Below are positions 1-17,192 of a DNA stretch of 17,192 nucleotides, in pieces (position 1 is the stretch's first letter; every line of letters begins with the position of its first letter). The notes under the pieces are model-generated. The model ran no database searches. It saw nothing but the letters and a program-made list of their open reading frames with translations, and had not been told where the DNA came from. Source of the stretch: Nitrospinota bacterium (lineage in GTDB: Bacteria; UBA8248); assembly GCA_046581755.1 (NCBI GenBank), contig JAYGFR010000312.1, forward strand, positions 1-17,192, written 5' to 3'. The translations under genes and the position numbers were made by a program.

Positions 1-149
1 AAATCATATCATAATAGAAGCTTTTCTATATAATTTGCTGCTATTGGATATTTTATCGGTCCGGAGAAGCTCACTTTGGGACTTTTAAGCAGTCTCTACA
101 ATATAAATGAAAGGTCATCGGATATGGTTCAAGCATGCCGACCATGAAA

Positions 150-158: not shown

Positions 159-189
159 GGTCCGGCGCAGAAAAACAGGGGGTTCCGGA

Positions 190-1212: not shown

Positions 1213-1337
1213 GACCCCTCTTTCGGGCAGAGGCGCCGTGCCCGGCGCGCAATTCATCCGGAAAATCCAGGAAAAAAGCTATCCCGGAATTCGAAAAATC
1301 AAATGGAATACAGAAGGGATTGAAACGAGGGACCGGG

Positions 1338-1610
1338 CTAGATCTTTACGCCCTTGCGCCTGAGACCGACCAGGACCGCGAAGATACCCTTTTTGGCGAT
1401 GGTCTTGATCCCGCGCGCGGATATCAGCAAAGTCACCCAGCGCTTTTCCTCGGGAACCCAAAAACGCTTGTTGTGGAGATTCGGCTCAAAGCGCCTCCGG
1501 GTTTTGCGGTGCGAGTGGCTGACCGTGTTGCCGTAGGTGACGGCTTTCCCCGTGACGATGCAGCGGCGGTGCGCCAGAGAGACCTTTGGCGATACTTTTA
1601 GGCGGGCCAT
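1338..1610 (-). CDS. rpmB: 50S ribosomal protein L28 (long form, no Zn ribbon)
   Basis: RRCIVTGKAVTYGNTVSHSHRKTRRRFEPNLHNKRFWVPEEKRWVTLLISARGIKTIAKKGI is a clear L28 signature. Its ATG directly follows the rpmG stop (TAA-ATG). Confidence 0.97.
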   Translation of the reverse strand: MARLKVSPKVSLAHRRCIVTGKAVTYGNTVSHSHRKTRRRFEPNLHNKRFWVPEEKRWVTLLISARGIKTIAKKGIFAVLVGLRRKGVKI

Positions 1611-1760
1611 TTACTTGTTCTCCCTGAACAGCACGTGCTTGCGGCAGAATCGGCAATACTTCTTGAACTCCAGCCGGTCCGGTGTGGCCCGCTTGTTCTT
1701 GGTCGTGGGGTAGCGCATCTTCTTGCACTCGGTGCATTCGAGCAGGATTTTGTCTCGCAT
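1611..1760 (-). CDS. rpmG: 50S ribosomal protein L33 (Zn-ribbon C+ form, 49 aa)
   Basis: [49 protein letters not shown] has two CxxC motifs and the TTKNK and LEFKKYC L33 motifs. True start is ATG at 1760 with a GGATGGGA purine tract upstream; the longer ORF-track start is an artefact. Confidence 0.97.
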
Positions 1761-1883
1761 CGAACTCAATTCCCATCCGGAGGGATAATAACAAAAGCCA
1801 TTTCCGGCGGGCTCCGGCGCACCGCCCAAAAAAAGAAGCACTATCCATAAAGGAAAGGGCGGGAAAATTCAACCCCCCCGGGA

Positions 1884-1895
1884 TGAATATATTCA
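1884..1895. promoter_or_regulatory. Perfect 12-bp palindrome TGAATATATTCA in the divergent rpmG / cytochrome c intergenic region; candidate transcription factor site
   Basis: AT-rich perfect dyad embedded in GC-rich flanks. Its TGAA-N4-TTCA core resembles a Rex box core. Confidence 0.35.
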
Positions 1896-2221
1896 CGCCC
1901 CCCGGCGTGCAAACGGCGGAAGGAGCTGATACATAAAGCCTTAGCCTAAAATCCTCACCAAGACACTGAAAATCATGGGGTTGCGAACCAAAGGCCCCAT
2001 GGCAGCAAAGCCCGAAAGCCCTGGCCTGTCTGATGCGCCAATCCGAACCGGGCCGCCAGCGATCGAAATACTTGGCCGTTTGTTGGATTTTTGATTTCCC
2101 CACAACCCAAACTGAATCCGGTTTATAATTCCAGCATTCAATCCTTTCTGCTGCCGATCTATGGGGAACACCTTATGGATTTGCCAAGTTTGCCCGCCCG
2201 CCTTCCGGTGAAATTTATCCG

Positions 2222-2677
2222 ATGATTTTTCGTGAAAATGGCTCGAAGAAACCGGCGAGATTTTTCTATGTCCTTCTTTGCCTCGTTCTAACCGCCGCGG
2301 GATTTTGCGCCTCGGCGGAGGGGACATCAAAACTTTCCCGCGCGGAGGGGGCGAGACTGGGGAAAAAGGTCAAGGGAATATTTGAGAAAAAGTGCGCCAG
2401 GTGCCACACCCCCGATGGATCGGATAGAGAAAAATACAAGAACGAGGTGGATATCGATTTTATCCTGAATCTGAAGAAACTGGCATCGAACCTGGACATT
2501 ATTAGCCCGGGAGATCCGAGAGGGTCCGGACTTTACCCCCAGGTGGAAGACAGCAGCATGCCGTATTCCGATACGGGAGAGAATCATCTCCCAAAGGAAG
2601 AAAAGAGCATCATCGAGAAATGGATCAAAGCGGGCGCACCCGATGAAAAAGGGGATCTCGTCCCGGCCGCCCCGTGA
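2222..2677 (+). CDS. Exported mono-heme c-type cytochrome (planctomycete cytochrome C-like domain)
   Basis: Signal peptide (KK..RFFYVLLCLVLTAAGFCASA), CARCH heme motif at 2393-2407, then ISPGDPRGSGLY...SMP...LPKEEKSIIEKWIKAGAP, matching the PGDP..S / MP / I..WI..GA pattern of this family. Confidence 0.85.
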   Translation: MIFRENGSKKPARFFYVLLCLVLTAAGFCASAEGTSKLSRAEGARLGKKVKGIFEKKCARCHTPDGSDREKYKNEVDIDFILNLKKLASNLDIISPGDPRGSGLYPQVEDSSMPYSDTGENHLPKEEKSIIEKWIKAGAPDEKGDLVPAAP

Positions 2678-2895
2678 TGCGTACCCAATAATCGCGCGTA
2701 CCAGAGATTATAATACGCGGCAGCGCCGGTTTATGCTCCCTTTTCACAAAAGGTACGTCATGGGAAACGTCCAAACGAGCACGATAGATGGCCTCTGCTT
2801 CCTTCATACCCCCAAATAGGCACCAAGCACCCCTTCGCAGAAATTGGATACTTGTGTGCTGCGGGGATACTTGAATCCTATTTTAACAATTCGGC

Positions 2896-3879
2896 CTAGG
2901 TCGGCTTTTTAAAACTGCCCTCGACCGGGAGGTCCTCGCCGGCGCCAGCGGCCTTGGCCCGCTTGTAAATCTCGGCCCCGATGGCCACGTCCTCGATTCC
3001 GACCCCCTGGCTGACGAACATGTTGATCTCGTCCGCCGAGGCGCGGCCCGGCATTTTCCCCGAGGCGATCTGGCCGATCTCGACCACCTGGCCCCAGTCG
3101 ATGGCGCGGGCGGCGACGGCCCGGATCAGGTCACCGCTTTCGATCCGCGCGCCCTCGAGGCTGTCGGTCGCGATGCGGCCCCTGGCGGCCCGGCGGAAAG
3201 TCTCATCGTCCACCTCGCGGTTCGCCGCCCGGTTGGAGCCGGCCGGAATGACGGTGGTTCCGGGTTCGAGATCGTTTCCGTCGAAAACCGGCTCGCGCGC
3301 GGTGGTCATCGTGCAGACGATCTGGGAGCCGCGGACGGCCTCGGCGGGCGTCTCGACGGGCACGAGCTCGGCCGGGACGGCGTCCTTCATCTTGTCCACG
3401 AACTTCTCGCGCTTCTCGGCGCTCCGGCTATAAATTTTCACCCGCTCGAGCGGGCGCGCACAGCACAGCGCCTCGAGCTGGGCGCGGGCCTGCCAGCCGG
3501 TGCCGAAGAGCCCGGCCTCGGTGGCGTCCTCGCGCGCCATGTAGCGCGCCCCCACCCCGCTGGCCGCGCCGGTTCTGATCTGCCCCAGGATGTTGGCCTC
3601 CATGAACGCCAAAAGCTCGGCCGAATTCGAATCCCAGAGCAGGAAAATAAAGCGGACCCCGATGCCCGGAAAGGTGGAGTAGGCCTTGAGGCCGAAATAG
3701 CCCTGGCCGGGCAGGCCGCCGTACATCACCTGGAGGGCGCCCTTGGGCATGATCAGCCGCCTTCGCGGCTGGTTGGGCGCCAGGCCCTCGCCCTGGGCCT
3801 GGAAGGCCGCATCGACGAGGTCGAGTACGTCCTTCATCTGGATCAGAGATTTGATGTCGGTCTCATTCAGGTAAAGCAT
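2896..3879 (-). CDS. Ornithine cyclodeaminase / mu-crystallin family protein (imine reductase or alanine dehydrogenase-like)
   Basis: Motifs QPR, GLK, RTGAASGVGARYMAR, Rossmann GTGWQARAQ, C-terminal SQGVGIEDVA; 327 aa; GGGGAAGGA ribosome-binding site. Confidence 0.93.
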   Translation of the reverse strand: MLYLNETDIKSLIQMKDVLDLVDAAFQAQGEGLAPNQPRRRLIMPKGALQVMYGGLPGQGYFGLKAYSTFPGIGVRFIFLLWDSNSAELLAFMEANILGQIRTGAASGVGARYMAREDATEAGLFGTGWQARAQLEALCCARPLERVKIYSRSAEKREKFVDKMKDAVPAELVPVETPAEAVRGSQIVCTMTTAREPVFDGNDLEPGTTVIPAGSNRAANREVDDETFRRAARGRIATDSLEGARIESGDLIRAVAARAIDWGQVVEIGQIASGKMPGRASADEINMFVSQGVGIEDVAIGAEIYKRAKAAGAGEDLPVEGSFKKPT

Positions 3880-3940
3880 ATCCTTCCCCTTCTATTTTTA
3901 TGATGACGGTAAAACCGCCCGGAAAAATTCGGTCCCTCGT

Positions 3941-5206
3941 TCAGGCGCCCGCCGATTCGAGCGCCACGCTGCAAAACGTCACCGTCCCGCCCGGATCGGG
4001 CCACTGGCTGTAGCGGAGGACCTCCCCCCGGCATCCCTCCAGGGCCCTTAGCATGGTGTAGATGGGCGCGAGGCCGCACACGTTCCTGGCGTCGCCGTCC
4101 TCCGCCACGCTCCAGTAAAACGCCTCGGCGTCCCCGCGGCATACGGCATCGAGGGAGGCGCGGTCGGCCTCCTCCAGGGCGCGGAGCTGCCCCTCGTCCA
4201 CGGGTTTTTCGTCCCCGAACTGGGGCCCCACGTGGGCCAGATCGACGCTGGCCAGGAGACACACCCTCCGGCCCGCGGCCTCGGCCTCAAATTCGGCCAC
4301 CACCCCCTTGAGCGCCTCGATAAAACCCTCGACCTCCGCGTCCCCTTCGGGGGAGCGGCCCTCGGCGACGAAGTTCCCGAACGAGCCCACCAGGACGGGC
4401 ACGAACCGGACCGGCTTGGGCTCGGGATAAAGATACCGGAGAAACACCGCCTGAAACTCTATCGAATGCTCGCCGCGCTGGGCGAATTCGTCCTCGAAAA
4501 GATCCCCCGGCGCGCGCCGGACCAGGGCGTCCACGAAGCTGGCATCCACCTCCAGGGCGCCCAGCGGGGTCTCGAAGCTTTTCCGCGTGAGGGTGTACAT
4601 CCCCCGCGTGGGGGCGTGGACCGTCCCGAGGACGACGAAGACATCCGCCGCCGCCCGGTCGGCGAGCGCCCGGTAGCTCCAGGCGAAAGCCGGGCCGCCG
4701 CGCTGAAAATCGATGTGGGGCGCCACCAGCCCCCGCAGGGGAGAGCCGCCCGCGCCGCCATTGGGCGGGGGGAGCCCCGGCCCGTCCGCATCGGTGAAAA
4801 AGCTGTCGATTTGGCTTCGCAGCGCCGCCGGATCGGCATCGTAGCTCTTGCCCGCAAGATAGCTCGGCCGCACCGCCGCGTCGAGATAAGATTGCTCCAC
4901 CCGGCGCTGCCAGGCCTCGAACTCCTCGCCGCCGAGAAAATGCGCCTGCTCCAGGAGAGAGAATACGTTGCGGATATTTTCGGCGGGAATTTCCAACTTG
5001 AACTCCGTCCGGATTTCCCGGCGGATCTCCTCGAGGGTGTGCGATCCGTCGAGCCGCTGAAGGACGGGAACCAGGCTCATCGGAACGACGAGAGTCTCAT
5101 CGCTCAGGTGGAGCGAGTCGCGCAGCAAGAGGACGTTTTGCCCTTCATGCTCGGTGGGGATGATCTCAAGGGACCTCAGGCGGGGCCGCCAATTTTCCCG
5201 ATCCAC
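3941..5206 (-). CDS. Memo / AmmeMemoRadiSam system protein B, long form with N-terminal PqqD/RRE-like winged-helix extension
   Basis: Memo motifs R...AG..Y, VAPHID, LGTVH, FETPLG, EHSIE, SVDLAHVG, NVCG. Start placed at GTG 5206 behind AAAGGAG; the ORF is open to 5233. Confidence 0.9.
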   Translation of the reverse strand: MDRENWRPRLRSLEIIPTEHEGQNVLLLRDSLHLSDETLVVPMSLVPVLQRLDGSHTLEEIRREIRTEFKLEIPAENIRNVFSLLEQAHFLGGEEFEAWQRRVEQSYLDAAVRPSYLAGKSYDADPAALRSQIDSFFTDADGPGLPPPNGGAGGSPLRGLVAPHIDFQRGGPAFAWSYRALADRAAADVFVVLGTVHAPTRGMYTLTRKSFETPLGALEVDASFVDALVRRAPGDLFEDEFAQRGEHSIEFQAVFLRYLYPEPKPVRFVPVLVGSFGNFVAEGRSPEGDAEVEGFIEALKGVVAEFEAEAAGRRVCLLASVDLAHVGPQFGDEKPVDEGQLRALEEADRASLDAVCRGDAEAFYWSVAEDGDARNVCGLAPIYTMLRALEGCRGEVLRYSQWPDPGGTVTFCSVALESAGA

Positions 5207-5220
5207 GAACTCTCCTTTTG

Positions 5221-5261
5221 AGGAAATCTCCAAAAAACCCCAGGAAATCTCAAAACAACCC
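5221..5261. repeat. Imperfect tandem repeat with 21-bp period (AGGAAATCTC at 5221-5230 and 5242-5251)
   Basis: aggaaatctccaaaaaacccc / aggaaatctcaaaacaaccc, directly upstream of the Memo ribosome-binding site. Confidence 0.6.
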
Positions 5262-5291
5262 GCGCCCGGGAATCATAAGCGCCGGGGCGGG
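5252..5291 (-). terminator. Possible intrinsic terminator after the MFS gene
   Basis: Minus strand CCCGCCCCGG, 12-nt loop, CCGGGCGCGGG (one bulge), then TTGTTTT; 16 nt after the MFS stop codon. Confidence 0.45.
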
Positions 5292-5307
5292 GCCGCGCCA
5301 TCTCTCC

Positions 5308-6564
5308 CTAACCCGCGCGGCGGCCCAGGCTGGGCGCGGTCACGAGCGAGAGAATCGTCGCGGCCGCGAGGATATAGAGCACCGGGGCGAAATCGCCCAC
5401 CGCGTCCCGGATGATGCCCGCCGCCCAGGGGCCAAGGAACCCGCCGAAATATCCCAGGCCGATGATCATCCCCCCCGCCTGGCCCGCCGATTCGGCGGGC
5501 ACCGCCCGCGCCGGATACCCCATGCACAGGACAAACCAGAAGCTCAGCGCAAACCCAATGAGGATAACCGCCCACGCGGCGGTCCAGCCGCCCGGCAGGG
5601 TGAGCGCCACGAGCGCGGCCGCTGTCGCAAGCGTGCAGATGACGGTGAACCGCGCCACCCCCCCCACGGCGGGAGCGATCTTGTGGGCGGTCAAAACGGC
5701 CACCACCCCCAGCCAGGCCAGCAGCGAGACGATCAGCCCCGCCTGGGCGAGCGGCCAGCCTTTTGTCCGCAATATCGTCGGAAACCAGCCGATGCCGGTA
5801 TAAAAAATGACGTTGTTGAGAAACAGCGCCGCCGTCACGGCCCAGACGGGGCGGCTGCGCCATACGGAGAACGCGGCCCCGGCGCCGGGTCCGCCCCCCC
5901 GCGCCTCAGGTTCATCCCGCGCCCCGGGCTCATCCCGCGTCCCGGGCGCAACCGGGTTCACCGCCATGGTCCGCCCACATGCCCGCTCCCAAAGGATAAA
6001 AGTCAGCAAAAGAGCGAACGCCCAAGCGAGGTAGCCCCCGCGCCAACCGGCTCCGCCCCGGGCAAACGGCACCTCCCCCAAAAACGCCGCCAGGTAGCCG
6101 CTCAGGGCCACCCCCATCGCGGCGCCCGTGACCACCGCCGCCGTGTAGAAGGCCGCCGCGGCCTCCCGCCTTTCCGGAGGCGCCGTCTCCCTCGCCACCT
6201 TGGGCAAGATCGGAAAAATCACGCCCGCGCCCGCCCCGACCAGCGCGATGCCCGCCGCCAGCGGCCACAGCCCGGTGGACCACACCCGGATCAACCCACC
6301 CGCCAAAACCAGGGTCGCGCCCAGGCGCGCCATCTTCGCAACGCCCAGCCGATCGACGAAGATGCCTCCGGTGAGCGCGAACAAAGTAATCAGCGGAAAC
6401 GGCACGGAAAGAAGGAACCCGCCCTGCGAATAGCTCAGGCCGAGATCGGCCCGGATCACCTCGACGAGACCGCTGGTGGAAACGAGGGAGCCGAAAACCG
6501 CCCACGTCAGGAAGCACACCGCCGCCAGGGGCACGAACCAGCGGGGGCGGGCATCCGCCTTCAC
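5308..6564 (-). CDS. MFS transporter, CynX/NimT-like
   Basis: About 12 hydrophobic segments, IRADLGLS...GFL, motif A GIFVDRLG, WFPTIL, C-terminal GYFGGFLGPWAAGIIRD. Start placed at GTG 6564, overlapping the upstream TGA (GTGA). Confidence 0.88.
   Translation of the reverse strand: MKADARPRWFVPLAAVCFLTWAVFGSLVSTSGLVEVIRADLGLSYSQGGFLLSVPFPLITLFALTGGIFVDRLGVAKMARLGATLVLAGGLIRVWSTGLWPLAAGIALVGAGAGVIFPILPKVARETAPPERREAAAAFYTAAVVTGAAMGVALSGYLAAFLGEVPFARGGAGWRGGYLAWAFALLLTFILWERACGRTMAVNPVAPGTRDEPGARDEPEARGGGPGAGAAFSVWRSRPVWAVTAALFLNNVIFYTGIGWFPTILRTKGWPLAQAGLIVSLLAWLGVVAVLTAHKIAPAVGGVARFTVICTLATAAALVALTLPGGWTAAWAVILIGFALSFWFVLCMGYPARAVPAESAGQAGGMIIGLGYFGGFLGPWAAGIIRDAVGDFAPVLYILAAATILSLVTAPSLGRRAG
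5912..5947. repeat. 18-bp tandem duplication in the MFS central loop (RDEPGA-like units)
   Basis: tcatcccgcgccccgggc / tcatcccgcgtcccgggc, plus a degenerate third copy at 5898-5911. Confidence 0.75.
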
Positions 6565-7514
6565 GCGGAGATATCCAACAGGCGGGCCGCGTTGCCGCCC
6601 ATCCATTTTTCGGTGACCTCGGCCTTGAGGGGCAGCGCCCGCGCCTCATCGGCGATCTCCTCGAGGCTCATCGGCATGAGCGGCCAATCCGTCCCGAACA
6701 GCACCTTGTCCTTCAGGACCGAGTTTCCAAAATGAAGGAGCATCTCCCACCCCGAGTTCGGGGTGGCCAGATACTTCCACCGGTGGCCCGAGGGGTCGAT
6801 GTAGAGATTCGGGTGCCGCCAGGCGGCGGCCACTATCTCGGGAACCCAGGGCCACCCGCCATGGCCGGCGATAACCTTCAACTCCGGCATCTCGCCGCAC
6901 AACCGATCCAGGGCCAGCGGGCGGCCCAGCTCCATGGGATGGGCCTGGGCCCAGTTCACCGAGGTGTGAATCCAGACCGGGACATTCAGCTCAACGCATT
7001 TCCTGTAGATTGGCCGGTAGGCCGAATCGTCGGCGGGAATGAGGTGGAGAAACGGGCACAGCAGCGCCCCATGAAGGCCCAGTTCCTTCACTCCCCGCTC
7101 GAGGGTGCGCGCGGCGTCTTCTTTATTGGGGTCCAGGCCGATCATCGCGAGGAGGCGGCCCGGACATTCATTCACAGCATCCGAAAGAACCTGGGGGTCC
7201 AACGGCGCCGCTCCGGTGGTCGTCTCCTGATCGATGCTGAATACGACCGACACATCGTATCCGGCCTCGTCCATCTCCAAGACGAATTGGCTCGCCCCCC
7301 GGGCCTGGCGGGCGGCGACTTCTTCGATGAACGCCCCGACCTCAAAATCCGGGCGGCCCTTCACCCGACGGAGAAACTCCTCCTCGTCTACCCCGCAAAA
7401 CCGTGAAATCCCCCGGGCGAACATCAGAAAATATCCGGGGATGGCCGCCCACCCCGACAATCTGGCGCGGAAGGAGGGCTCTACCGGAAGGAAACTGCAG
7501 ATATCAACGAGCAT
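6561..7514 (-). CDS. Amidohydrolase-2 family TIM-barrel protein
   Basis: YRPIYRKCVELNVPVWIHT, GRPLALD, PELKVIAGHGGWPW, HPNLYID, KVLFGTDWP, KWMGGNAARLL. The N-terminal strand reads VDICSF instead of IDxHxH. Confidence 0.92.
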   Translation of the reverse strand: MLVDICSFLPVEPSFRARLSGWAAIPGYFLMFARGISRFCGVDEEEFLRRVKGRPDFEVGAFIEEVAARQARGASQFVLEMDEAGYDVSVVFSIDQETTTGAAPLDPQVLSDAVNECPGRLLAMIGLDPNKEDAARTLERGVKELGLHGALLCPFLHLIPADDSAYRPIYRKCVELNVPVWIHTSVNWAQAHPMELGRPLALDRLCGEMPELKVIAGHGGWPWVPEIVAAAWRHPNLYIDPSGHRWKYLATPNSGWEMLLHFGNSVLKDKVLFGTDWPLMPMSLEEIADEARALPLKAEVTEKWMGGNAARLLDISA

Positions 7515-7535
7515 CGATCCCCCCCGCTTCCCGCC

Positions 7536-8582
7536 TCAACGCCGGGGCAGGCCCGGCCCCTGGGGCAACCCCGGTCCCCGCGGCAGTCCCGGGCCCTGGA
7601 GAAGGAGATTTTGGTCCGGGGGTGGAACCCGGGAGGAGCCACCCAGGGAAATCACGGCCATCGCGAAGAACACCGTTCCGACCAGCAATGCCGCCGCCGC
7701 CAGGCTGGCGCGAGGGGCGTTTCCGCGCCATCTCAAAATACTCACAAATAATTCAAGCAATCCCAGGACACCCCCGATCAGGAAAATCACCATGACCAGG
7801 ACCAGCGGCCGGGACGAACGCATGACCTCGCGGATGGGCTCCAACTGTTCGGTAATCAACCAAACTACCGCCAGGACGATCAGGAGAATCAGGCCTCCGA
7901 AGGATACAGAGGCGCCCAGCCGTATCATCCGAGCGCCCATCGAGACGGATTCGCCGCGTTCCCAGAAAAATGAACGGCATCCCACCACCATGAGCACCAC
8001 CCCGCCCGTCAGGGCGGAGGCAAACAGGATAAAGGCCATCAAAAATAAAAATGAAAGAGAGGTCCAAGCGGCGAGAGGGCTTTGCCGAATTTGGGGCCAA
8101 AGAGATGGATCGCCCACCCCCGCGATTAACCCGGCAACCACTGCCACCACGATAATGGCGGTGATTCCAGACCCGACAGGCCCCCATATCTGGCCCGGGG
8201 ACGGTCCCCGACCCCATCCAGGGGCCCTTTCTCCAATTTGAAACAGCCCTCCCCACGCCACCAGGAACAGGGGGACCGTCCAGAGAACGGGCGCCAAAAA
8301 AACGGAAACCGCGAACCACCCGGCGGGATTCCGGCTCGACGCCAGGTGGACCGAATACAGCCCGAAGAAAAACACCCCCGCAAGGCAAACGCCCGAATAG
8401 CGGCCAAGCAGATCGGCCGCATCGAGTTCCCCCTTCGCGCCGGTCCGCCCGCCCCAGAATCTCATGTGGGCCACCGTCCAGGGAATCGCCACCAAGGCGC
8501 ATACGAAAAGAACGCACATGGACAGCACCAGCACCATCAGCCAGGCCGTCCACTCGGAGGAAACGAATCCGGCCGCGATCAT
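7536..8582 (-). CDS. Polytopic membrane protein, probable divergent second subunit of a cytochrome bd-like (CydA-homologous) module
   Basis: About 8 hydrophobic segments; ATGA overlap with the upstream CydA-like gene. Helix spacing resembles the partner subunit of cytochrome c-fused bd-like oxidases as I recall it, with weak similarity. Ends in (GPGLP[R/Q])x3. Confidence 0.6.
   Translation of the reverse strand: MIAAGFVSSEWTAWLMVLVLSMCVLFVCALVAIPWTVAHMRFWGGRTGAKGELDAADLLGRYSGVCLAGVFFFGLYSVHLASSRNPAGWFAVSVFLAPVLWTVPLFLVAWGGLFQIGERAPGWGRGPSPGQIWGPVGSGITAIIVVAVVAGLIAGVGDPSLWPQIRQSPLAAWTSLSFLFLMAFILFASALTGGVVLMVVGCRSFFWERGESVSMGARMIRLGASVSFGGLILLIVLAVVWLITEQLEPIREVMRSSRPLVLVMVIFLIGGVLGLLELFVSILRWRGNAPRASLAAAALLVGTVFFAMAVISLGGSSRVPPPDQNLLLQGPGLPRGPGLPQGPGLPRR
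7542..7595 (-). repeat. Three tandem 18-nt coding repeats encoding GPGLP(R/Q)
   Basis: C-terminus GPGLPR-GPGLPQ-GPGLPR-R; copies differ at synonymous positions. Confidence 0.8.
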
Positions 8583-10507
8583 GGCGTTTTCCCTCCCGGT
8601 TTCGGGGTCTTGGCATCCGCCGGTTTTTTACTTTTCTCATCCTTGGCCGTGGTGGGTTTCGATTTTACGCTCTTCCCGGCGCCGCGCTCCGGCTTCTTGC
8701 CTTTTCCTTCGCCGGGAGCCGGGATTTTATCCTTTGCCTTTAGAGACGCGGGGGGAGGCGGCTTTTTTCCGGCGGCTTCAGGTTCCTTGGCCGTCTTATC
8801 CTTGATTGTCTTATCTTTGGCCGTCTTATTTTTTCCTGGGCCATCGGGAGATTTCCCGGGTTCGGCGGCGGGCCGGTCCGGCTTCGCCCCGGAAGGCTTT
8901 GGCCGGGCGGGTTTCGCCACGCCCGGTTTGCCCTCGGCCGGCTTCGCTCCAGCCGGTTTGGACACAGCGGGTTTGGTTTCAGTCTGTTTCGCCTCGGCCG
9001 GTTTGGTTTCAGTCTGTTTCGCCTCGGCCGGTTTGGTGTCCGCCGGTTTGGACTTCGCCGGTTTGGTGTCAGCCGGTTTCGCCTCGACCGGGGCGCCGCC
9101 GGAGGCGGGCGAAGAGGCTGGGACACGGGAAGGCTCGGTTTTTTTCACTACCGGAGGAGCGGGTTTGGGCTTGGCCCGGACGGCAGGAACGGGCTTGGCC
9201 TGGACAGCGGGAGCGGGCTTGGAAGGCCGGGACGCCAGCGTGCCGCCTGAATCCCTAATAAGTTTTTCGAGGTAAAGGGCGGCCGCCTTTTTTTCCCGTC
9301 GGTTTCCACCGAATATGGGAAGCTGGGGATGGCGCGAGGATAAATTACCGAGAAACGACAGTGCGTCTCCCTCGTACCGAATCGCGGCCAGTGCCGGGAG
9401 ACCGCCCTTTTTCAGCCACTTCGAATGACAAGAAAAACATTGGGCGCGGAAGCTGAACGCCCCGAGCCCCACCCCGCTGGGAGGCGGCTCATTCCGCCGC
9501 CAGGGCGCCGGCTTCCAAAGGCCCGAAACGCTGAGCTGCCCAATTTCGGAAATCAAAATTCCGTTCCGGAACAAGTATCCCTGGATCGAGAACGGGCCCT
9601 CCACATGGGTCCGAATCCGGTAAATGCCGCCCGCCTGGGCCAGCAGTACGACGGCGGCGATGGCCGACAGGGCGAGACCGAAGCCTTCCGATCGCCTGAC
9701 CGCGGTCCAAAACAGGAATGCGCTCAGCGACAGGGCCAGCGCCGCCGTGACTGCTCCCGGAACGACGGAGGCGGCCACGCGGAAGAAGAGAACGAAAACC
9801 CAGTAGGCAGTGAAAACGATCCCGGCGATCGAGGCGGCGATGGTCCAAACCCCCAGCCACCCCGCCAGGGAGGAGCGCCAAAGGTCATCCTTTCGCAGGG
9901 CGGCGTAAATCAAACCGGCACCGCCCGAGACCGCAAGGGAAAACGAGCACCAAACGAGATAGGCGGGCGCGAAGGAAGGGTTCAGCAATGCGTCCCAGGT
10001 GGAGCGCGTGTTGTGCCAAAACCCCGGCGTCATGGAAAACGAGGCCATCGATACCGGAAGCGCCGAGGCCGCGAAGAGCGCTACCGCCGCCAGGACGCCC
10101 ACTCCGAAATGGGCCGGGAACGACGAGCACAGGCGGGTCCATTTCCCGGTGTGCAAAAAGAGCGCCACCATGCCAGCGAGCAGGAACCCCCAGGCAAACC
10201 GCATCGGGAGCTGAAATATTTTTTGAAACTCCGCCGCCGCCATCGGGCGAAGAACGGTCTGGGCCAGCCACAGGAGGGACCCGGACAGCCCCACCCCGAA
10301 CACCATGAGGTTCACCACCCGTGAGGAGATGGCGCGGGCGAGCTGGTCCCACCTCGGATCGACGCTCCGGCGGCCCCGGACCTGGGCGGCCAGGGCATAC
10401 ACCATGCCGCCCGCCGCCAGCCCCGTGAGGATCATGAAAACGAACGACAGCGAGGCGAGAAGGCCGGAAGCCAGGGACGGGGAAACGTTAACGAAGGGAT
10501 ATTGCAC
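8579..10507 (-). CDS. Divergent CydA-like (cytochrome bd-like subunit I) membrane protein fused to a cytochrome c domain and a Lys/Pro/Ala-rich repeat tail
   Basis: N-terminal QYP, about 9 TM helices, motifs AAGG, VFG..LSG..LW, SMTPGFW...WDALLNPSFAP, RIR....PFSIQGYLFRNGI, CFSCH at 9425-9439, PIFGG.R.EK.A.A.YL. Start is GTG 10507 (AAAGG upstream) or ATG 10522. The ORF-track extension to 11215 is spurious. Confidence 0.75.
   Translation of the reverse strand: MQYPFVNVSPSLASGLLASLSFVFMILTGLAAGGMVYALAAQVRGRRSVDPRWDQLARAISSRVVNLMVFGVGLSGSLLWLAQTVLRPMAAAEFQKIFQLPMRFAWGFLLAGMVALFLHTGKWTRLCSSFPAHFGVGVLAAVALFAASALPVSMASFSMTPGFWHNTRSTWDALLNPSFAPAYLVWCSFSLAVSGGAGLIYAALRKDDLWRSSLAGWLGVWTIAASIAGIVFTAYWVFVLFFRVAASVVPGAVTAALALSLSAFLFWTAVRRSEGFGLALSAIAAVVLLAQAGGIYRIRTHVEGPFSIQGYLFRNGILISEIGQLSVSGLWKPAPWRRNEPPPSGVGLGAFSFRAQCFSCHSKWLKKGGLPALAAIRYEGDALSFLGNLSSRHPQLPIFGGNRREKKAAALYLEKLIRDSGGTLASRPSKPAPAVQAKPVPAVRAKPKPAPPVVKKTEPSRVPASSPASGGAPVEAKPADTKPAKSKPADTKPAEAKQTETKPAEAKQTETKPAVSKPAGAKPAEGKPGVAKPARPKPSGAKPDRPAAEPGKSPDGPGKNKTAKDKTIKDKTAKEPEAAGKKPPPPASLKAKDKIPAPGEGKGKKPERGAGKSVKSKPTTAKDEKSKKPADAKTPKPGGKTP
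8780..9215 (-). repeat. Low-complexity pentapeptide (KPAxx) coding repeats with 15/30-bp periodicity, including an exact 30-bp duplication
   Basis: gtttggtttcagtctgtttcgcctcggccg occurs exactly at 8971-9000 and 9001-9030. Protein reads KPADT KPAKS KPADT KPAEA KQTET KPAEA KQTET KPAVS KPAGA KPAEG..., also KDKTI KDKTA. Confidence 0.9.
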
Positions 10508-10572
10508 GCCGAAACCTTTCATCCACGCCCGGGGGTTTGAGCGCCGGGACGGGGGGACCGCAACCGGGGGGT

Positions 10573-11691
10573 CTAAACCTTCGCGGCGCCTTTCGCCCGG
10601 TAGCGCTCCAGCTTGTCCTCGTCGAACGACACGCCCAAGCCGGGCGCCACCGGCACGGGTATCCGGCCGCTTCCGATGTCGAGCGGGCGATCCACCACGT
10701 CGTCCATCATTTTTTCGGGGCCGACGGATTCGATGGCCGGTAGGAAGACGGACGATGTGGCGGCGAGGTGCACCTCGGCCAGGGTGTGGATGGTGAGGCC
10801 GAATCCGTGGCCGATGACGAGGCGCATCCCCGCCGCCTCGGCGGTGCTCGCCATCTCGCGGGCCGGGATGAGGCCGCCCTGCTTCATGACCTTCAGCTTC
10901 ACGATATCGGCCGCCTCGGCCCGGATGATTTCGAGGAGGCTGGCGTGATCGTAGACGCACTCGTCGGCCATGACCGGAAAGCTTATCGAGCGGCGGACGC
11001 GGGCCAGGCCCCCTAAATTCTCCCGGGGGACGGGCTGCTCGAAGAGGACGGGGTTGGCCTCTTCCACCTCGGCGGCGAAGGCGATGGCATCCTCCACGCG
11101 GGCGTAGGATTCGTTCGCGTCGATGCGGATGTCCATGGCGCCGCCTACGGCCTCGCGCACGGCGAGGACACGCGCCGCGTCCGATCCGATATCCCCTCCG
11201 GCCTTGACCTTGCACGATACCCAGCCCCGTTGGCTGAATTCCAGCGCCTCGGCGGCGGCCTCATCCGGCGGGTTGATGCCGATCCAGGCGTTGAAGAAAA
11301 TCTCCTCGCGCACCGCACCGCCGAGAAGCGCATGGAGGGGCGAGCCGATGGCCTTGGCGTGGATGTCCGCCAGGGCGACGTCGAGGGCGGACTTGGCCTC
11401 GAAGAGCCCGGGGGCCGCCTCGGCCATCCGGCGCGAAGCCTCGCGCGCGCGGCGCGGGTCCGCCCCCAGCAGGGCCGGCCCGAGGACACTCTCGATAGCT
11501 TCGGCACTCTCGTCCCGGCCTGCCGATGAGTATCCGCTGAACGGCTCGGCGTCCCCGAACCCCTCGAGCCCCTCGTCCGTCCGGACCCGGACCAGGACGC
11601 AGGGCTGGACGTTGTGGTTGTGCGAGGCGTTCTTGTAGAACCCCTTCATGGGCATATCGACGCGGTAGGCTTCGACCGAGGACACTTTCAT
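10573..11691 (-). CDS. Enolase superfamily enzyme, muconate lactonizing enzyme (MLE) subgroup
   Basis: VRVRTDEGLEGFGDA, AKSALDVALADI..K, catalytic KVK, metal ligands DAN / EQP / ADE, second Lys in KLKVMKQGG, ESVGP, PGLGV. AGGAG ribosome-binding site. Confidence 0.93.
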   Translation of the reverse strand: MKVSSVEAYRVDMPMKGFYKNASHNHNVQPCVLVRVRTDEGLEGFGDAEPFSGYSSAGRDESAEAIESVLGPALLGADPRRAREASRRMAEAAPGLFEAKSALDVALADIHAKAIGSPLHALLGGAVREEIFFNAWIGINPPDEAAAEALEFSQRGWVSCKVKAGGDIGSDAARVLAVREAVGGAMDIRIDANESYARVEDAIAFAAEVEEANPVLFEQPVPRENLGGLARVRRSISFPVMADECVYDHASLLEIIRAEAADIVKLKVMKQGGLIPAREMASTAEAAGMRLVIGHGFGLTIHTLAEVHLAATSSVFLPAIESVGPEKMMDDVVDRPLDIGSGRIPVPVAPGLGVSFDEDKLERYRAKGAAKV

Positions 11692-11736
11692 CCAGTCCGC
11701 TCCTGCTATTGGCCCGCGCCGGGGCCGGGTGAATTT

Positions 11737-11769
11737 TTGCGCAACGCGAATGATATTCGCATCCTACCA
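11737..11769 (-). promoter_or_regulatory. Putative extended -10 promoter (TG-G-TAGGAT) with adjacent operator-like inverted repeat GCGAAT-N3-ATTCGC
   Basis: Minus strand TGGTAGGAT at 11769-11761, perfect 6-3-6 dyad at 11746-11760, and palindrome TTGCGCAA at 11737-11744, all upstream of the MLE start. Confidence 0.45.
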
Positions 11770-11811
11770 GAGACGGCACGGACCGTCTCTCGGCGCGGGG
11801 CGTCTCTGGGC

Positions 11812-14800
11812 TCAGGCCTCCCGCCCCGCATGGATCCGCCCGGCGGCCCGGCGGACCTCCTCTCGCGCGGCCCCGTCCAGCGGAAACGCCCTCTCCGCCC
11901 CCGGCCTCAAGAAGGCGAAGATCACCTCCCGGACCTCCTGGCCCGCCGCCGCCCCGGCCGCCATGGCGTAGGCGGCGCCCTGGGGGCGGTAATGCGCCGC
12001 CCTTCGATCCACGTCGGCGCCGCTCACGGCGTCGGTTTTGAAATCCACCACCACCAGCGCACCGCCCTCCTCGAACACCAGGTCGGCCACCCCCCGGAGG
12101 ATCCAGTCCCCCTCGCGCATCAAAACCGGAAGCTCCCGGAACACCCGCCCCGAGGCCGCGATGCGCCCGAACAGCGCCCCCTCGGTCGCCCCCCGGATCA
12201 TGGCCACCGCCTCGCCGATCTCTTTATCCGAAAGCCCGAATCCAGCCGCCGCCGCGCGCGCCTCCTCCGCCAGCGCATCCACCCCGGCCCGGTCATAGGA
12301 ACCCAGCCGCGCGAGCAGGGCATGGACCAGCTCCCCGAATTTCCGCCCGCCCTGCGCGCCCCCGGCCTCCAGGCTCGATATCCCGTAGCGCCCGGCCTCG
12401 CCCGCCGCCTCGGCCTCCCAATCCTCCGCCTCGGCCCCCGCCCCTTCCGGCAGGCTGCTCGGGCCGATGAACCGAAATCCCGGCCCCGGCTCCCCCAGCG
12501 CGGCGAGGCTTTTTTCCGCCCCGGCCCTCCGGCGGAGCGCGGCCCGCCTTTTTTCCTCATTCGCCTCGAAGGCATTCTCCGGCAGGCGGAGCACGCCGGG
12601 CTCGATAAGCTCCCCGGCGCCTTTCACCTCGGCCATTTCCGTCAGTCTCTCCACCTCCTCGCGCATCCCCTCGCCCGCCGCGCCGCTCTCTATGAGAATT
12701 TTCCAGAAAGAACTTTCGCCCGCGCCCTCCGCCGCCGGCAGGATGAGCCAGTCCCGCGCCCGCGTCGCCGCCACATAGAGCAGCCGCCTCCGCTCCGCCT
12801 CCTGAATCTCCGCCTCGCGCTCCCTCGCCCGCGCGTATCCGGCCGAAGTCAGGCCCCGCCCCTTCGGCCCCGTCTTCAGGTGAATCCGCCCGCTCTCCCG
12901 GTCCGCGATCCGGGCCATCTCGTCCGCCCTCGGCGCGCTCCCCAGGTCCACCAGGATCACCACCGGAAACTCCAGCCCCTTCGAGGCGTGAATCGACATC
13001 AAGCGCACATCGTCCCCGCCCCCGCCCGCCGCCGCCTCCTCGGGCTCCTTCGCCTCCCGCCCATGAGCGAGCTGGCGCTTCAGGTGGAGCGCGAACTCGT
13101 CCACCCCGCGCGCCCCGCCGCCCGCGAACTCGAAGGCGAGGTCGAGAAGCTTGAGCAGATTGGCCACCCGCCGCTCCCCGTTGAAGGAAGAAAGAAAAAG
13201 CTCGAACGCCTGGGTCCGGCGAAAAATCTCCTCCAGCAGCGCGCGGGGGCTCATCTCCCCGCGCCTCTCGTGGAACTCCTCCATCTCGGCCACCGCCCCG
13301 TCCATCTCCGCCGGATATCCAAGAGTGTCCTTTTCGCAAAGACGCCACCGGGCCAGATCTACGTCCGAGAACCCGTAGAGCGGCGAGCGCAGCGCGGCGG
13401 CCACCGCCAGCGGGTCCCCCGGATGCACCGCCGCCCAGAGCACCGCCCCTGCCGCCGCCACCTCGGCAGTCTCGTAGAAACCGCTCCCCCCGTCGGCGGA
13501 GACCGGAATATTCAACCGTCCGAAAGCCTCCTCGAAATTCGAAAAGGCCCCCCGCGTCCGGGAGACCAGGACGATATCCCCGTAGCGCACGGGCCTCGGC
13601 TCCTCGTTTTTGGGATGGACCACCGTCTTTTCATCCACCAGCCTCCGCACCTCCGCCGCGACGCAGGCCGCCTCCCTCCGCCGGCGCTCACCGGCGCTCA
13701 TCTTTCCCTCCAGCTCCTCGCCCGCGAGCAGCCGGACGCGCGCGCCCGCGTCCCGGCGGAAGGCATTTAGGGGCTCGTAGCGGGGCTGGACCGAGCCCCG
13801 CTGCACGATGATCCGCCCGAAAACCGCGTTCACCCAGTTCGTCACGCCGGGGGCGCTCCGGAAATTTTCGGTAATCTGAATCACCTTCCCGCCGGGCGAA
13901 TCCGCGATCCGGTTCTTGACGCCGTGATAGATGGCGATGTCCGCCCGCCGGAACCGGTAGATGGACTGCTTGGGGTCTCCCACGACGAACAAACCGCCCC
14001 CGGTGAGCTTCACCTTCCGCCAATCGTCCGCGCCGCCGCCCTCGCCCGCGAGACGAAAGATCAACTCGGCTTGGAGCGGGTCGGTGTCCTGGAACTCGTC
14101 CACAAGAAAATGATCGAAACGGCCCTGGAAATCCGCGCGGGCCTCAGGGCTCTCCCGAACCAGCCGGGCCGCGTGAAAAAGAATCCCCGCGAAATCGAGA
14201 ATCCCCTCCTCGCGCGCGCGAGCAGCGAGCGCATCGGCGTATACCGATAGAGAAGCCGCCAAACCCGACAAGACCTCATGGCCCGCCCCGGCGAGGGACT
14301 CTTCGAGAAAGCCGTCGTATCCATCCCGGAACGCCTTCCGGCCCTCACGCCCGCCCCATGCCTTGATGCCGCCCAGATTTTTGTTGAGCTTGGCCGACGG
14401 GCTCCAAAGCTCCCGTATCAGGCCGATGAGGTTGGAATCGGGAAGACCCTCCACCCACCCCGAGAGTTCTTCGAGCTGGAGGTAGGCCTTGTCCGATTTG
14501 TCCTGGACGATTGAATCGGCGAGGGCGCGCCAGCGCCTGAACGACGCGCGGACCGTTTCCTTGATCTCCGCCGGGGACCGGTTTTCGGGGATTGGAAACC
14601 CCGCGCGCAGTTCGGGAAAATCGAGCAGTGCATCCCGGACCTCCTCCAGATTCTTCAGCCCGAAGCCGAGTTCCAGGAACATCTCGATGGCCGGGTCTCC
14701 CCCGGTCATCCGCTCCCGCAGCCACCCCTCCCAGAGCCGGTCCCGCAGATCGTCGTGCGCGTCCGTATCCACGTCACCCGCGCCGGGCCGGAGACCCGCC

Positions 14801-15159
14801 TCGATGGGACGTTCCTGAAGGAGGCGCATCGCGAAGCTGTGGATGGTCGAGATCGGCGCCCGGTCGATCCGGTCCAGCGCCTCCCGGAAGCGGACGCGGG
14901 CCTCCTCGTCCGTTTCCTTTTCGAACGCACCCGAAAGGGCGGCGCGAATCCGGGAGCGAAGCTCGGCGGCGGCCTTGATCGTGAACGTGATGGCCACGAT
15001 CCGCTCTATATCGATCCCCTCGCTCCGGACGAGATGAAGCACCCGCCTCACGAGCAGATCGGTCTTGCCCGTTCCCGCGCCCGCCTCGACGAGGATGGGC
15101 CCCTCCGTCCAGCGGACCGCCAGCTCGCGCGCGCTTTGATCGCGGGGCGCGCGGCTCAT
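11812..15159 (-). CDS. addA: ATP-dependent helicase/nuclease subunit A (UvrD/RecB-type SF1 helicase plus C-terminal PD-(D/E)XK nuclease)
   Basis: EAGAGTGKT, ITFTIKAAAELRSRI, STIHSF, VDEFQDT, VGDPKQSIYRFRRAD, ENFRS, MSIHASKGLEF, RRLLYVAATRARD, nuclease GVADLV...VDFKT...Q...Y. ATGA overlap with addB. Confidence 0.93.
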   Translation of the reverse strand: MSRAPRDQSARELAVRWTEGPILVEAGAGTGKTDLLVRRVLHLVRSEGIDIERIVAITFTIKAAAELRSRIRAALSGAFEKETDEEARVRFREALDRIDRAPISTIHSFAMRLLQERPIEAGLRPGAGDVDTDAHDDLRDRLWEGWLRERMTGGDPAIEMFLELGFGLKNLEEVRDALLDFPELRAGFPIPENRSPAEIKETVRASFRRWRALADSIVQDKSDKAYLQLEELSGWVEGLPDSNLIGLIRELWSPSAKLNKNLGGIKAWGGREGRKAFRDGYDGFLEESLAGAGHEVLSGLAASLSVYADALAARAREEGILDFAGILFHAARLVRESPEARADFQGRFDHFLVDEFQDTDPLQAELIFRLAGEGGGADDWRKVKLTGGGLFVVGDPKQSIYRFRRADIAIYHGVKNRIADSPGGKVIQITENFRSAPGVTNWVNAVFGRIIVQRGSVQPRYEPLNAFRRDAGARVRLLAGEELEGKMSAGERRRREAACVAAEVRRLVDEKTVVHPKNEEPRPVRYGDIVLVSRTRGAFSNFEEAFGRLNIPVSADGGSGFYETAEVAAAGAVLWAAVHPGDPLAVAAALRSPLYGFSDVDLARWRLCEKDTLGYPAEMDGAVAEMEEFHERRGEMSPRALLEEIFRRTQAFELFLSSFNGERRVANLLKLLDLAFEFAGGGARGVDEFALHLKRQLAHGREAKEPEEAAAGGGGDDVRLMSIHASKGLEFPVVILVDLGSAPRADEMARIADRESGRIHLKTGPKGRGLTSAGYARAREREAEIQEAERRRLLYVAATRARDWLILPAAEGAGESSFWKILIESGAAGEGMREEVERLTEMAEVKGAGELIEPGVLRLPENAFEANEEKRRAALRRRAGAEKSLAALGEPGPGFRFIGPSSLPEGAGAEAEDWEAEAAGEAGRYGISSLEAGGAQGGRKFGELVHALLARLGSYDRAGVDALAEEARAAAAGFGLSDKEIGEAVAMIRGATEGALFGRIAASGRVFRELPVLMREGDWILRGVADLVFEEGGALVVVDFKTDAVSGADVDRRAAHYRPQGAAYAMAAGAAAGQEVREVIFAFLRPGAERAFPLDGAAREEVRRAAGRIHAGREA

Positions 15160-17192
15160 TTCGTCCTCTCCCGGAGGTCATCCAGCTCCGCTCGGAGATC
15201 GCTGCCCGCCTTCCGGTCCGCCCGGCCCTTCCGGTCGGGCCCGCAAACCGAAGTGAATTCGCAGTAGCCGCACGTTCTCCCCGAAAAGGATTGAAACGGC
15301 GTCGGGAAAAATTGCCCCCGATCAACCGCCCTCGCGTAAAAGCCCAGGAGGGCGCTCACCTCCTCCCGCCGCGCTTCGATCGCCTCGGGGGGAATTTCCG
15401 CAAGGCGGTATTCCCCCCGCTCGGTGGGGAAGGCATAGGCGGCGCTCACCCGAGAGCCCTCCCCGAAGCGATCCGCCGCGCAGTGGAAATACAGGTCCGG
15501 TTGAAGGCGTGTCCCACTCCCGAGGCCCGGCACAGTTGTTTTGGGGAGGGCGGTCCGACCACTTTTGTAGTCGATGAAGCGGTGCTCCTCCCCGTTCCGC
15601 TCCACCAGATCGAAGCGCCCGATCAGGTGAATTTTTTTCCCGTTCTCCGTCAGGGCGAACCGGGGCGTTCTTTTTCCGCCGATCCATCCCTCGATCTCGA
15701 CTGGGGCCCAACCGGGCTCCTCTCGATAGGTTTTCTCGAAAAACAGGTTCAGGTCGCGTTCCGCCGCCCTTTGAAGAATCCCCCAAGGGACCGGGAGCGG
15801 GGGCCGGTCTTCGGTCTCGAAAATTTGACCGGCCTCGCGCACCGCCTCTCCGATCAGGCTCCGCCGCTCTCCCGGGGCCAGCGCGCCGAATCCTTTTCCC
15901 GTCTTTTTGACCCGCTCCGCGAACCGCTGGAGGGCGCTGTGATAGAACCTGCCCCGGGCGTCGCTTTCAGCCTCCAGCGCAAGGCCGGACTCCTTTTCTT
16001 CCCCCAGGCCGAGCAAATGCTTGAGCGCGAACTGGTATGGGCAGGTGAAAAAACGCTCGAGGGCGGTGACGGAGATGTGGGCGCTCTCCGGGTCCAGCCG
16101 CTCCCGGATGCGCTCGATCAGATCGGGCTCACCCAGCGCCCCGTCGAAGGGGGTAAGACGGTTCGCCCAGCGCTCCCTCCAGGCGGCGACCCGCCTCCCG
16201 AATCCAGGCTTTCGATCCGTGAAATCCGAGAGCGCCCCCTTGGCGGAGCGCTTGCCGATCTGGCCGAGGAGGCGGCCGAGATCGTGTTCGAGAAGAGAGA
16301 GGGGCCGGTCCTGGATTACATCGGGCTCCAGGGCGGTGGACACCACGCGGTGGCCCGGAAGCCGCCGCAACTTGGCTTCCGCGCCCTCCCCCTCCAGCCC
16401 GGAGGCGTCCGCGATATATTCGAGGAACAGGCTGGGCGGGCGCTCGGCCTCGTCCCCGGCCCCCTTGCCCCCTCTCGGGTAGCCCAGGATTACACGGCGT
16501 TCGGCCGCCTGAAGGGCGGTCCAGAACAAAAATTGCTCTTCGGCGGCGCGGCCCGATTTGAGCGGGAGGGGAGCCATCTCCCCTTCGGCGGACAGCATAT
16601 CGTTCAGGAGGGCGCGGACCGTATCGGGCAGGAAGGGGTCTTCGGCGCCCCGCGCGGGAAATACGCCCTCCGCCATGCCGGGAATCGCCACCGTCTCGAA
16701 CGAGAGGCCGCGCGCCTGCTGAAGGCTCAGCATGCGCAAACGCGCGGGCTCCCTGGCCGCGGGAACCCGCGCTTTTTCGAGGGCGGTCCGCGCCCAGCGA
16801 TGGAACTCTCCAGCACCGATTTCGCCCAAAATTTTGTCCAGCCCGCCGAGTTTCCGGATCACCCCGAAATCCATCTCCAAATTTTCGGAAACCGCTGTCA
16901 GCGCGTCGAACGCTTCGAGGGCGGCAGCGGAATGCGCTGAGGGAAGTGCCCGCTCGGGCAGGCCGTCCAGAAAGCCGAAAAGGCGCTCCAGCGATTGTTC
17001 GAGGAGATCGGCGGACCGGGAATCGTCTTCTTTTAATCGGCCCCTGAATTTGGGGGACCGGAGGGCTTCCCGCCATTCGTCCGCGCCGGAGAGAAACGGG
17101 AGCCGCCGGGTGATGTACTCCCACCTCGCGGGGAGGGCGGCATGGTCCCCGTCCGGGGCAATCCCCTCCACAAAAACCGGGGAGGCGCAAAA
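15156..17192 (-). CDS. addB: ATP-dependent helicase/nuclease subunit B (inactive helicase domain plus Fe-S PD-(D/E)XK nuclease); 5' part lies outside the window
   Basis: ARGLSFETVAIPGMAEGVFP...DPFLPD, SVTALERFFTCPYQF, GRFDLVE...IDYKSG, LQPDLY, CGYCEFTSVC (four-Cys Fe-S staple). The reading frame stays open to the window edge. Confidence 0.88.
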   Translation of the reverse strand, partial: FCASPVFVEGIAPDGDHAALPARWEYITRRLPFLSGADEWREALRSPKFRGRLKEDDSRSADLLEQSLERLFGFLDGLPERALPSAHSAAALEAFDALTAVSENLEMDFGVIRKLGGLDKILGEIGAGEFHRWARTALEKARVPAAREPARLRMLSLQQARGLSFETVAIPGMAEGVFPARGAEDPFLPDTVRALLNDMLSAEGEMAPLPLKSGRAAEEQFLFWTALQAAERRVILGYPRGGKGAGDEAERPPSLFLEYIADASGLEGEGAEAKLRRLPGHRVVSTALEPDVIQDRPLSLLEHDLGRLLGQIGKRSAKGALSDFTDRKPGFGRRVAAWRERWANRLTPFDGALGEPDLIERIRERLDPESAHISVTALERFFTCPYQFALKHLLGLGEEKESGLALEAESDARGRFYHSALQRFAERVKKTGKGFGALAPGERRSLIGEAVREAGQIFETEDRPPLPVPWGILQRAAERDLNLFFEKTYREEPGWAPVEIEGWIGGKRTPRFALTENGKKIHLIGRFDLVERNGEEHRFIDYKSGRTALPKTTVPGLGSGTRLQPDLYFHCAADRFGEGSRVSAAYAFPTERGEYRLAEIPPEAIEARREEVSALLGFYARAVDRGQFFPTPFQSFSGRTCGYCEFTSVCGPDRKGRADRKAGSDLRAELDDLRERTK

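Follow-up and report, generated by a model that had tools for sequence, protein, structure and literature searches.

A pair of adjacent membrane-protein genes in the genome of a Nitrospinota bacterium descends from the two subunits of a heme c-fused cytochrome bd, is maintained by purifying selection throughout a single family of uncultured bacteria, and very probably no longer supports oxygen reduction. The genes lie on the minus strand of a 17,192-nucleotide stretch of DNA (GenBank assembly GCA_046581755.1, contig JAYGFR010000312.1, positions 1 to 17,192), referred to below as the window, and are named here gene A (8579 to 10507, 642 amino acids) and gene B (7536 to 8582, 348 amino acids). 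The reading that we favor, to which we give a probability of roughly one in three, is that the pair may work as a heme c redox sensor or docking scaffold whose heme-free membrane part serves a cytoplasmic partner. A first-pass annotation had described two intact, translationally coupled genes for a cytochrome bd-like module stripped of its membrane heme ligands. Both reading frames indeed run without stops, and the stop codon of A overlaps the start codon of B in an ATGA at 8579-8582. The motifs quoted for A (FMILTGLAAGG, residues 24-34; MRFAWGFLLAG, 102-112; YRIRTHVEGP, 296-305; and CxxCH, 357-361) and for B (SMCVLF, 21-26) were all found. Gene A starts with GTG at 10507; an alternative ATG at 10522 was set aside, since the starts of homologs coincide with the GTG, which also follows a purine-rich stretch. 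The protein is an OR-C1a-derived subunit consisting of a membrane domain with the CydA fold and eight predicted transmembrane (TM) helices (residues 1-303; 9599 to 10507), a monoheme class I cytochrome c domain predicted to be periplasmic (residues 341-420; 9248 to 9487), and a low-complexity Pro/Lys/Ala-rich tail of 222 residues (421-642; 8582 to 9247) with 15-bp repeats at 8898-9091. This tail is not conserved, and varies from 24 to 281 residues across orthologs. B is an OR-C1b-like partner, also with eight predicted TM helices and a CydA-like fold.

Neither protein was matched by Pfam or NCBIfam at E ≤ 0.1, there was no direct match to PF01654, and a PDB sequence search returned weak cytochrome c matches only. 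In the Atlas, the neighbors of A were CydA-cytochrome c fusion clusters (cosine 0.96-0.97). A profile built from 30 A orthologs found 723 library proteins at E ≤ 0.001, and the best 150 matches beyond the clade were mostly canonical OR-C1a, which together with OR-C1b forms the CydAA'-type, heme c-fused family of the cytochrome bd superfamily described by Murali, Gennis & Hemp (10.1101/2021.01.16.426971). Profile-profile alignment (hhalign) of A with canonical OR-C1a gave a probability of 100 and an E-value of 3.7e-56 over 411 columns. The AlphaFold model of A residues 1-420 (predicted local distance difference test, pLDDT, 94), built from an alignment that included canonical homologs, matched CydA with a Z-score of 31.6 and a root-mean-square deviation (rmsd) of 2.9 Å over 307 residues, against a Z-score of 17.4 for the next-best fold family. 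The modeled C-terminal domain matched cytochrome c6 (Z 7.3, rmsd 2.9 Å, 73 aligned residues), and Cytochrome_CBB3 was matched by 22/30 A orthologs at E ≤ 1. For B, the best fold matches of the model (pLDDT 92.5) were CydA chains, and hhalign against presumed OR-C1b subunits gave a probability of 89 and an E-value of 2.4e-6. Like OR-C1a, A has eight TM helices, no quinol site and a C-terminal heme c motif, while OR-N proteins have 10-14 TM helices and cytochromes from separate genes of the operon; the heme c domain of A is fused and no cytochrome genes adjoin it. The predicted A-B heterodimer, with a TM2/TM3 interface, scored 0.86 versus 0.00 for the best of three controls, with a contact agreement between runs of at least 82% and a partner pLDDT of at least 80. 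The mark used is reached by 116/157 solved pairs and 2/215 mismatched pairs, and A-B may pass it because it resembles bd complexes of solved structure and because the alignments contained canonical rows. The complex prediction gave no heme contacts, and so does not bear on ligation by His393. Together, the profile-profile and fold matches, the eight-helix a subunit with heme c, and the adjacent eight-helix b-type paralog bear out the CydA homology proposed by the first-pass annotation, and A and B are descendants of an OR-C1a/OR-C1b cytochrome bd pair.

The defining feature of the cytochrome bd superfamily is a core of four helices in which two active-site hemes are bound. The motifs that had been given as canonical (TM1 H..H, WxxEW..E, and ExxRExxR[KR]P) are genuine, since they are present in homologs outside the clade. 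In A, the equivalents of E. coli CydA H19, E99, E107, E445 and R448 are F24, A105, G112, T300 and E303, the second TM1 His is G29, the invariant TM5 Arg is W186, and H126 is kept, as H133 (a global hhalign alignment to E. coli CydA is unreliable past TM4). Among the orthologs, none has His at H19 (0/29, one row being gapped), Glu at E99 or E107 (0/30 each), or the TM5 Arg (0/30), and both glutamate positions are Gly in 27/30. The claimed loss of b/d heme ligands and proton-channel glutamates held up, and at these four positions it extends to all orthologs examined. Over eight catalytic columns, clade members keep zero to four residues and 16/32 keep none, whereas all eight are present in 98/115 outside homologs; the 32 rows comprise 29 genome orthologs and three library proteins largely duplicating them, and rows gapped in any column were dropped. 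The figure of 98/115 is an unselected count, while the 98-row canonical set used for other comparisons was chosen by four catalytic residues, so counts for those four residues in that set are circular. The proposed loss of the TM8 ExxRExxRxP motif holds for this copy (T300/E303) and does not hold for the clade as a whole, as the motif is a mosaic in which Glu is found at E445 in 4/30 and Arg at R448 in 10/30, and all four charged residues are still there in the G008 ortholog. Of two further positions that had been put forward for alignment, M393 was not mappable and H186 is not a useful test, because even among canonical OR-C1a it varies (His in 1/12 rows shown).

The annotation had also stated that heme c was kept. 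The attachment motif (residues 357-361; 9425 to 9439) is indeed invariant (30/30 orthologs), but the distal Met is replaced. At its position, Leu396 in A, Met occurs in 0/30 orthologs and Tyr, Leu or Phe in 30/30, compared to Met in 85/98 canonical rows. Three residues earlier, His393 (His393 to Leu396, 9320 to 9331) is found in 30/30 orthologs versus 4/79 canonical rows, and a Met-to-His switch of the heme c ligand is therefore likely, judging from these columns. This genome (G000) encodes heme c assembly genes, so heme c attachment to A is plausible.

Because the membrane-heme ligands, the proton-channel glutamates and the distal Met are absent, the pair is likely unable to reduce oxygen, and the ancestral route from heme c to the O2-reducing heme pair is very probably inoperable. 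One alternative is that A-B is still a heme enzyme that uses other ligands, such as B His39 and Met198 or A His133, to hold a heme or metal at the cytoplasmic side. These are the only membrane-domain His or Met residues conserved in at least 80% of orthologs (A H133 in 25/30, B H39 and M198 each in 28/29), the two in B lie at a similar depth in TM1 and TM5, and the outer His residues survive in some B orthologs (TM1 3/29, TM5 19/29). All three, however, are at predicted cytoplasmic ends, opposite to heme c, this B copy has neither the TM1 nor the TM5 His, and the proton channel is gone, making such an enzyme very unlikely. The TM1 His of the partner had been listed as a loss; it is present in 33/34 presumed canonical b subunits and is Cys23 in B, but with 3/29 B orthologs retaining it, the loss is not clade-wide. 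Of those 34 canonical rows, 4 were shown to adjoin an a gene and 30 are search matches biased to one subfamily.

Oxygen reduction appears to be covered by another route, since COX1 is nearly family-wide (41/42 family genomes); the copy in this genome has six ligand-type His. The suggestion that A-B might serve a canonical bd paralog as a regulatory subunit, or in its assembly, did not survive. Canonical OR-C1a/b does coexist in G012, G016 and G022, and PF01654 is matched above cut-off in 2/42 genomes (G003, G005), but no other bd-family gene was found by three routes in G000, which is 96.5% complete, and none was found in most family genomes, single-contig ones included. Because canonical OR-C1a is restricted to 3/42 genomes, G000 not among them, and the canonical copy of genus g9 sits elsewhere in the tree, such a role is extremely unlikely. 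The canonical OR-C1a genes are confined to genus g9 (L033:5147-7677 and L034:6301-8825, both with a b partner, and L036:2555-3679), and were probably acquired separately, given their placement far from the degenerate clade. Longer CydA homologs are present in G041, G037, G003 and G005 (L037, L120, L121, L083), and the G041 homolog is surrounded by c-type cytochrome/EB_dh genes, a setting that would be expected of the OR-N type.

Gene A is free of internal stops in 33/42 family genomes (split across contigs in one), at 28-59% identity, while nine other genomes of the phylum gave three weak A matches only. The A clade is monophyletic (FastTree support 1.0 with 150 rows; SH-aLRT 100 with 56 rows), lies apart from the canonical g9 copies, and adjoins P0019, P0036, P0128 and P0126, the sister group being uncertain owing to long branches and skewed composition. 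The pair is kept jointly and lost jointly. In G062 both genes are cleanly deleted, leaving a 74-bp gap, G063 and G027 contain remnants, and the neighboring genes persist where the pair is deleted. In G007 (genus g4), the mandelate-racemase-family enzyme (MLE) gene that otherwise precedes A abuts the cyclodeaminase gene, and the block from A to the Memo-like gene is missing. G022 is 67% complete, and G029 has no match for the flanking genes either.

To assess selection, ratios of nonsynonymous to synonymous substitution rates (dN/dS) were calculated. Medians over 152 pairs, which are not independent, were 0.34 for both B and the membrane domain of A, and 0.25 for the heme c domain (150 pairs), the most constrained part, versus 0.11 for the neighboring MLE (119 pairs) and 0.12 for the neighboring amidohydrolase (150 pairs); the MFS transporter control gave 0.17-0.20 (three pairs). 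Between the window and L122, values were 0.23 for the A membrane domain, 0.22 for the heme c domain and 0.29 for B, each with p < 1e-7 against neutrality and close to the 0.21 of Memo. In the G012/G016 comparison, canonical a gave 0.11 and canonical b 0.39, whereas degenerate A and B gave 0.45 and 0.42, respectively, indicating that A evolves like a non-catalytic subunit, since its ratio matches the b-type level and not that of canonical a. Purifying selection thus acts on the pair, but in relaxed form, at a strength like that on a non-catalytic subunit. An alternative is that A-B is a vestigial module that is slowly decaying, its frames kept open mainly by the harm that frameshifts or misfolding in the membrane would do to the operon downstream. 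Its dN/dS of about three times that of the neighbors, the value of 0.79 reached by B in the close pair L068/L070, the deletions in G027, G062 and G063, and the mosaic of old residues would all fit this. However, frames have stayed open in 33 genomes at the divergence given above, CxxCH, His393 and newly invariant residues do not vary, dN/dS is far below 1 (0.2-0.45), and a clean deletion is feasible, as in G062, yet rare. We therefore consider slow decay unlikely, and the earlier view that the pair is retained stands.

The favored reading, a sensor or docking scaffold, is prompted by newly conserved residues at the cytoplasmic face. Topology was assigned from CydA and the Lys/Arg bias, which is clear in A and weaker in B, and places the odd loops in the cytoplasm and heme c and the tail in the periplasm. 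B has two patches of clade-specific conservation, one at the predicted cytoplasmic end of TM1 (residues 34-46; 8445 to 8483), with P34 in 29/29, H39 in 28/29 and W43 in 26/29 orthologs, and one at the predicted cytoplasmic end of TM5 and the following loop (residues 193-224; 7911 to 8006), with M198 in 28/29, W207 in 29/29, E208 in 27/29, R218 in 28/29 and R221 in 27/29. Mean conservation of B is 0.62-0.74 in four inner segments compared to 0.33-0.52 in the other 13. In A, clade-specific conserved residues lie at predicted cytoplasmic ends as well (residues 48-53 and 207-211). A possible mechanism would be that heme c, attached at Cys357 and Cys360, has exchanged His/Met ligation for His361 and His393; its potential would then be lowered or switched, and it would no longer feed an oxidase site. 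Aromatic residues F24 and W186 would fill the former heme cavity, and the helix bundles may relay the redox state to the cytoplasmic side with its new conservation, where a partner encoded elsewhere would receive it. It is a tentative proposal that the whole oxidase complex has been repurposed in this way and passed down through a bacterial family: a bd heterodimer without membrane heme in either subunit would sense redox state or a gas across the membrane, with its periplasmic heme c re-ligated by His/His and its cytoplasmic face newly adapted for docking. It would work in a manner analogous to the periplasmic c-heme sensors DcrA, GSU0582 and GSU0935, for which ligand switching is described (PMC8396549), in that a covalent heme c sits outside, the axial ligand changes, and the signal crosses the membrane. 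Those proteins differ in being PAS-fold sensors fused to chemoreceptor output domains, and no homology is expected; Pfam and NCBIfam found no PAS or fused signaling domain in A or B, and their fold is accounted for by CydA and class I cytochrome c.

Several observations weigh against a sensor or docking scaffold. A and B carry no fused output domain, no regulator was recognized beside the pair in the loci examined, and no partner was found, the two candidate cytochromes described below not sharing its pattern of losses. The pair is dispensable, being deleted or decayed in 3/23 genus-g8 genomes and not found in four g4 genomes, and is constrained about three times less than the neighboring enzymes. 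The inside/outside contrast in A is weak (0.48-0.67 inside versus 0.29-0.60 outside), and the conserved cytoplasmic residues, being mostly W, R, P or G, could be structural. His393 may have been inherited rather than recruited as a ligand, since the Met-bearing near relatives P0019 and P0036 already carry its equivalent. Finally, oxygen reduction by canonical OR-C was itself assigned from sequence only, according to the part of Murali et al. consulted (10.1101/2021.01.16.426971).

A close rival to this reading is that A-B may be a membrane-tethered monoheme electron carrier or supercomplex scaffold, whose heme c would shuttle electrons between periplasmic or respiratory partners, while the 16 helices would be no more than an anchor left over from the ancestor, with B required to stabilize it. 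Constraint is strongest on the heme c domain, relaxed selection on the TM region would suit an anchor, and a bc-type cytochrome b as well as an A-type oxidase are encoded in this genome. For a class I shuttle with bis-His ligation there is a precedent, MtoD, a soluble, lower-potential cytochrome c of an iron-oxidation cluster (PMC4412085); MtoD has the class I monoheme fold in common with A, in which His/His ligation is a prediction. Against a carrier, it would leave the clade-specific cytoplasmic patches of B unexplained, no respiratory genes lie close to the pair, and genomes lacking it retain the oxidase and an 8-heme cytochrome. The latter is a 984-residue frame with eight CxxCH motifs (G000:C75:11065-14016, L128), about 7 kb from the Rieske/cytochrome b genes; with a match in 42/42 family genomes, it is likely a core respiratory cytochrome of the family. 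For the same reason, it was rejected as a partner of A-B by the co-loss test. A 5-heme reading frame was rejected as well, as it was matched in G027, G062 and G063, although this query may be partly off-frame, because its matches carry many stops. A cluster of 5-, 4- and 10-heme cytochromes, without a family match over cut-off, is located at G000:C399:2682-13428 (L127). In addition, a second but truncated COX1 lies at G000:C188:1666-2013 (L136); it shares 56% identity with the intact copy over the latter's first ~120 residues and is apparently what remains of a broken second oxidase.

A transporter, channel, or lipid- or quinone-handling protein on the emptied bd fold was also considered. Both channel glutamates have become Gly in most orthologs, which could open a cavity, and the pair lies within an operon-like run that includes an MFS transporter and catabolic enzymes. 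Nevertheless, the ortholog alignments showed no conserved polar path through the membrane domain of A or B, the neighboring genes survive deletion of the pair, and heme c would be left without a role, so that this function is quite unlikely.

Compared to known systems, A-B resembles OR-C1a/1b in its 8-TM a subunit with a C-terminal heme c, adjacent 8-TM b subunit, lack of a quinol site, fold and scaffold motifs. It differs in lacking the TM1 His, the E99 and E107 equivalents and the TM5 Arg, and in its eroded TM8 motif, the loss of the b-subunit His in this copy, the replaced heme c distal Met, and the long low-complexity tail. By descent the pair belongs to OR-C1, but by catalytic criteria it would not count as an oxygen reductase. 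CydB, CydA' (qOR4b) and other b subunits, which have the bd fold without proton-channel glutamates, are a precedent for non-catalytic subunits, but they always partner a catalytic a subunit, whereas both subunits of A-B appear non-catalytic; CydA' keeps His19 (10.1101/2021.01.16.426971). A long qOR1 branch without a proton channel, mentioned in the Fig. 2 legend of that study, is likewise an a-subunit lineage that lacks channel residues, but belongs to a quinol-oxidase family, and the text consulted mentions no missing heme ligands for it. The NrfD/PsrC fold, including ActC and ActF of alternative complex III, is a related helical fold with much weaker matches than CydA (Z 16.4-17.4), and no alternative complex III genes were recognized near A-B. 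ActF is a cofactor-free paralog within alternative complex III. A pair in which both subunits are ligand-free was not found in the literature searched, comprising the accessible parts of 10.1101/2021.01.16.426971, PMC10839748, PMC13189123, PMC4412085, PMC8396549 and others, but Tables S6 and S7 of Murali et al. may mention degenerate OR-C1a. A-B is a real, conserved and apparently undescribed variant of OR-C1. If the favored reading holds, it would be a respiratory pseudo-enzyme complex that kept both subunits, the fold and heme c and took on a new job, and nature thereby supplies a counterpart without membrane hemes against which the OR-C family can be compared. Counts of such forms may be too low, because the pair is invisible to Pfam and NCBIfam, and the published survey filtered out sequences without quinol-site or proton-channel features (10.1101/2021.01.16.426971). 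It also cautions that fold or embedding similarity alone is insufficient to score OR-C-like genes as oxidases.

Partial degeneration may recur across OR-C1a, as is suggested by several degenerate homologs on separate branches. Ten of the 115 outside homologs keep at most five of the eight catalytic positions, most of them with the distal Met, and none shows as complete a loss as the typical clade member. Those with 3-5 positions are P0046, P0099, P0114, P0126, P0133, P0038, P0065, P0136, P0143 and P0149. In P0133, the distal Met is also absent, and a His lies three residues before that position. In the nearest relatives P0019, P0036, P0128 and P0126, the second TM1 His is Asn or Thr and a His is kept at the E. 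coli H186 position; this group is possibly a distinct OR-C subtype.

The gene order on the minus strand is addB-addA, MLE, A, B, amidohydrolase, MFS transporter, Memo-like protein, and ornithine-cyclodeaminase-like protein, the names addAB being taken from UvrD and PD-(D/E)XK domains. The same order was found in the ortholog loci examined at length, where the A-B pair is syntenic. The flanking conserved run covers 2896-7514 and 10573-17171 on the minus strand, and the Memo-like protein has a PqqD-like N-terminal extension. No sigma-70-like promoter was found between 6400 and 12000, and terminator-like sites were mostly intragenic. RNA contigs from 4 of the 11 listed runs cover pieces of A and its neighbors at a depth of 2-7, and single contigs span the MLE-A and B-amidohydrolase junctions, but as DNA carry-over is possible, these are not counted as evidence of expression. 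Elsewhere in the window, a lower-GC stretch on the plus strand (2222-2677) encodes a 151-residue monoheme cytochrome c-like protein with sub-threshold Pfam matches only, and a Tad/TadG-like pilus assembly protein is encoded at 157-1212, also on the plus strand.

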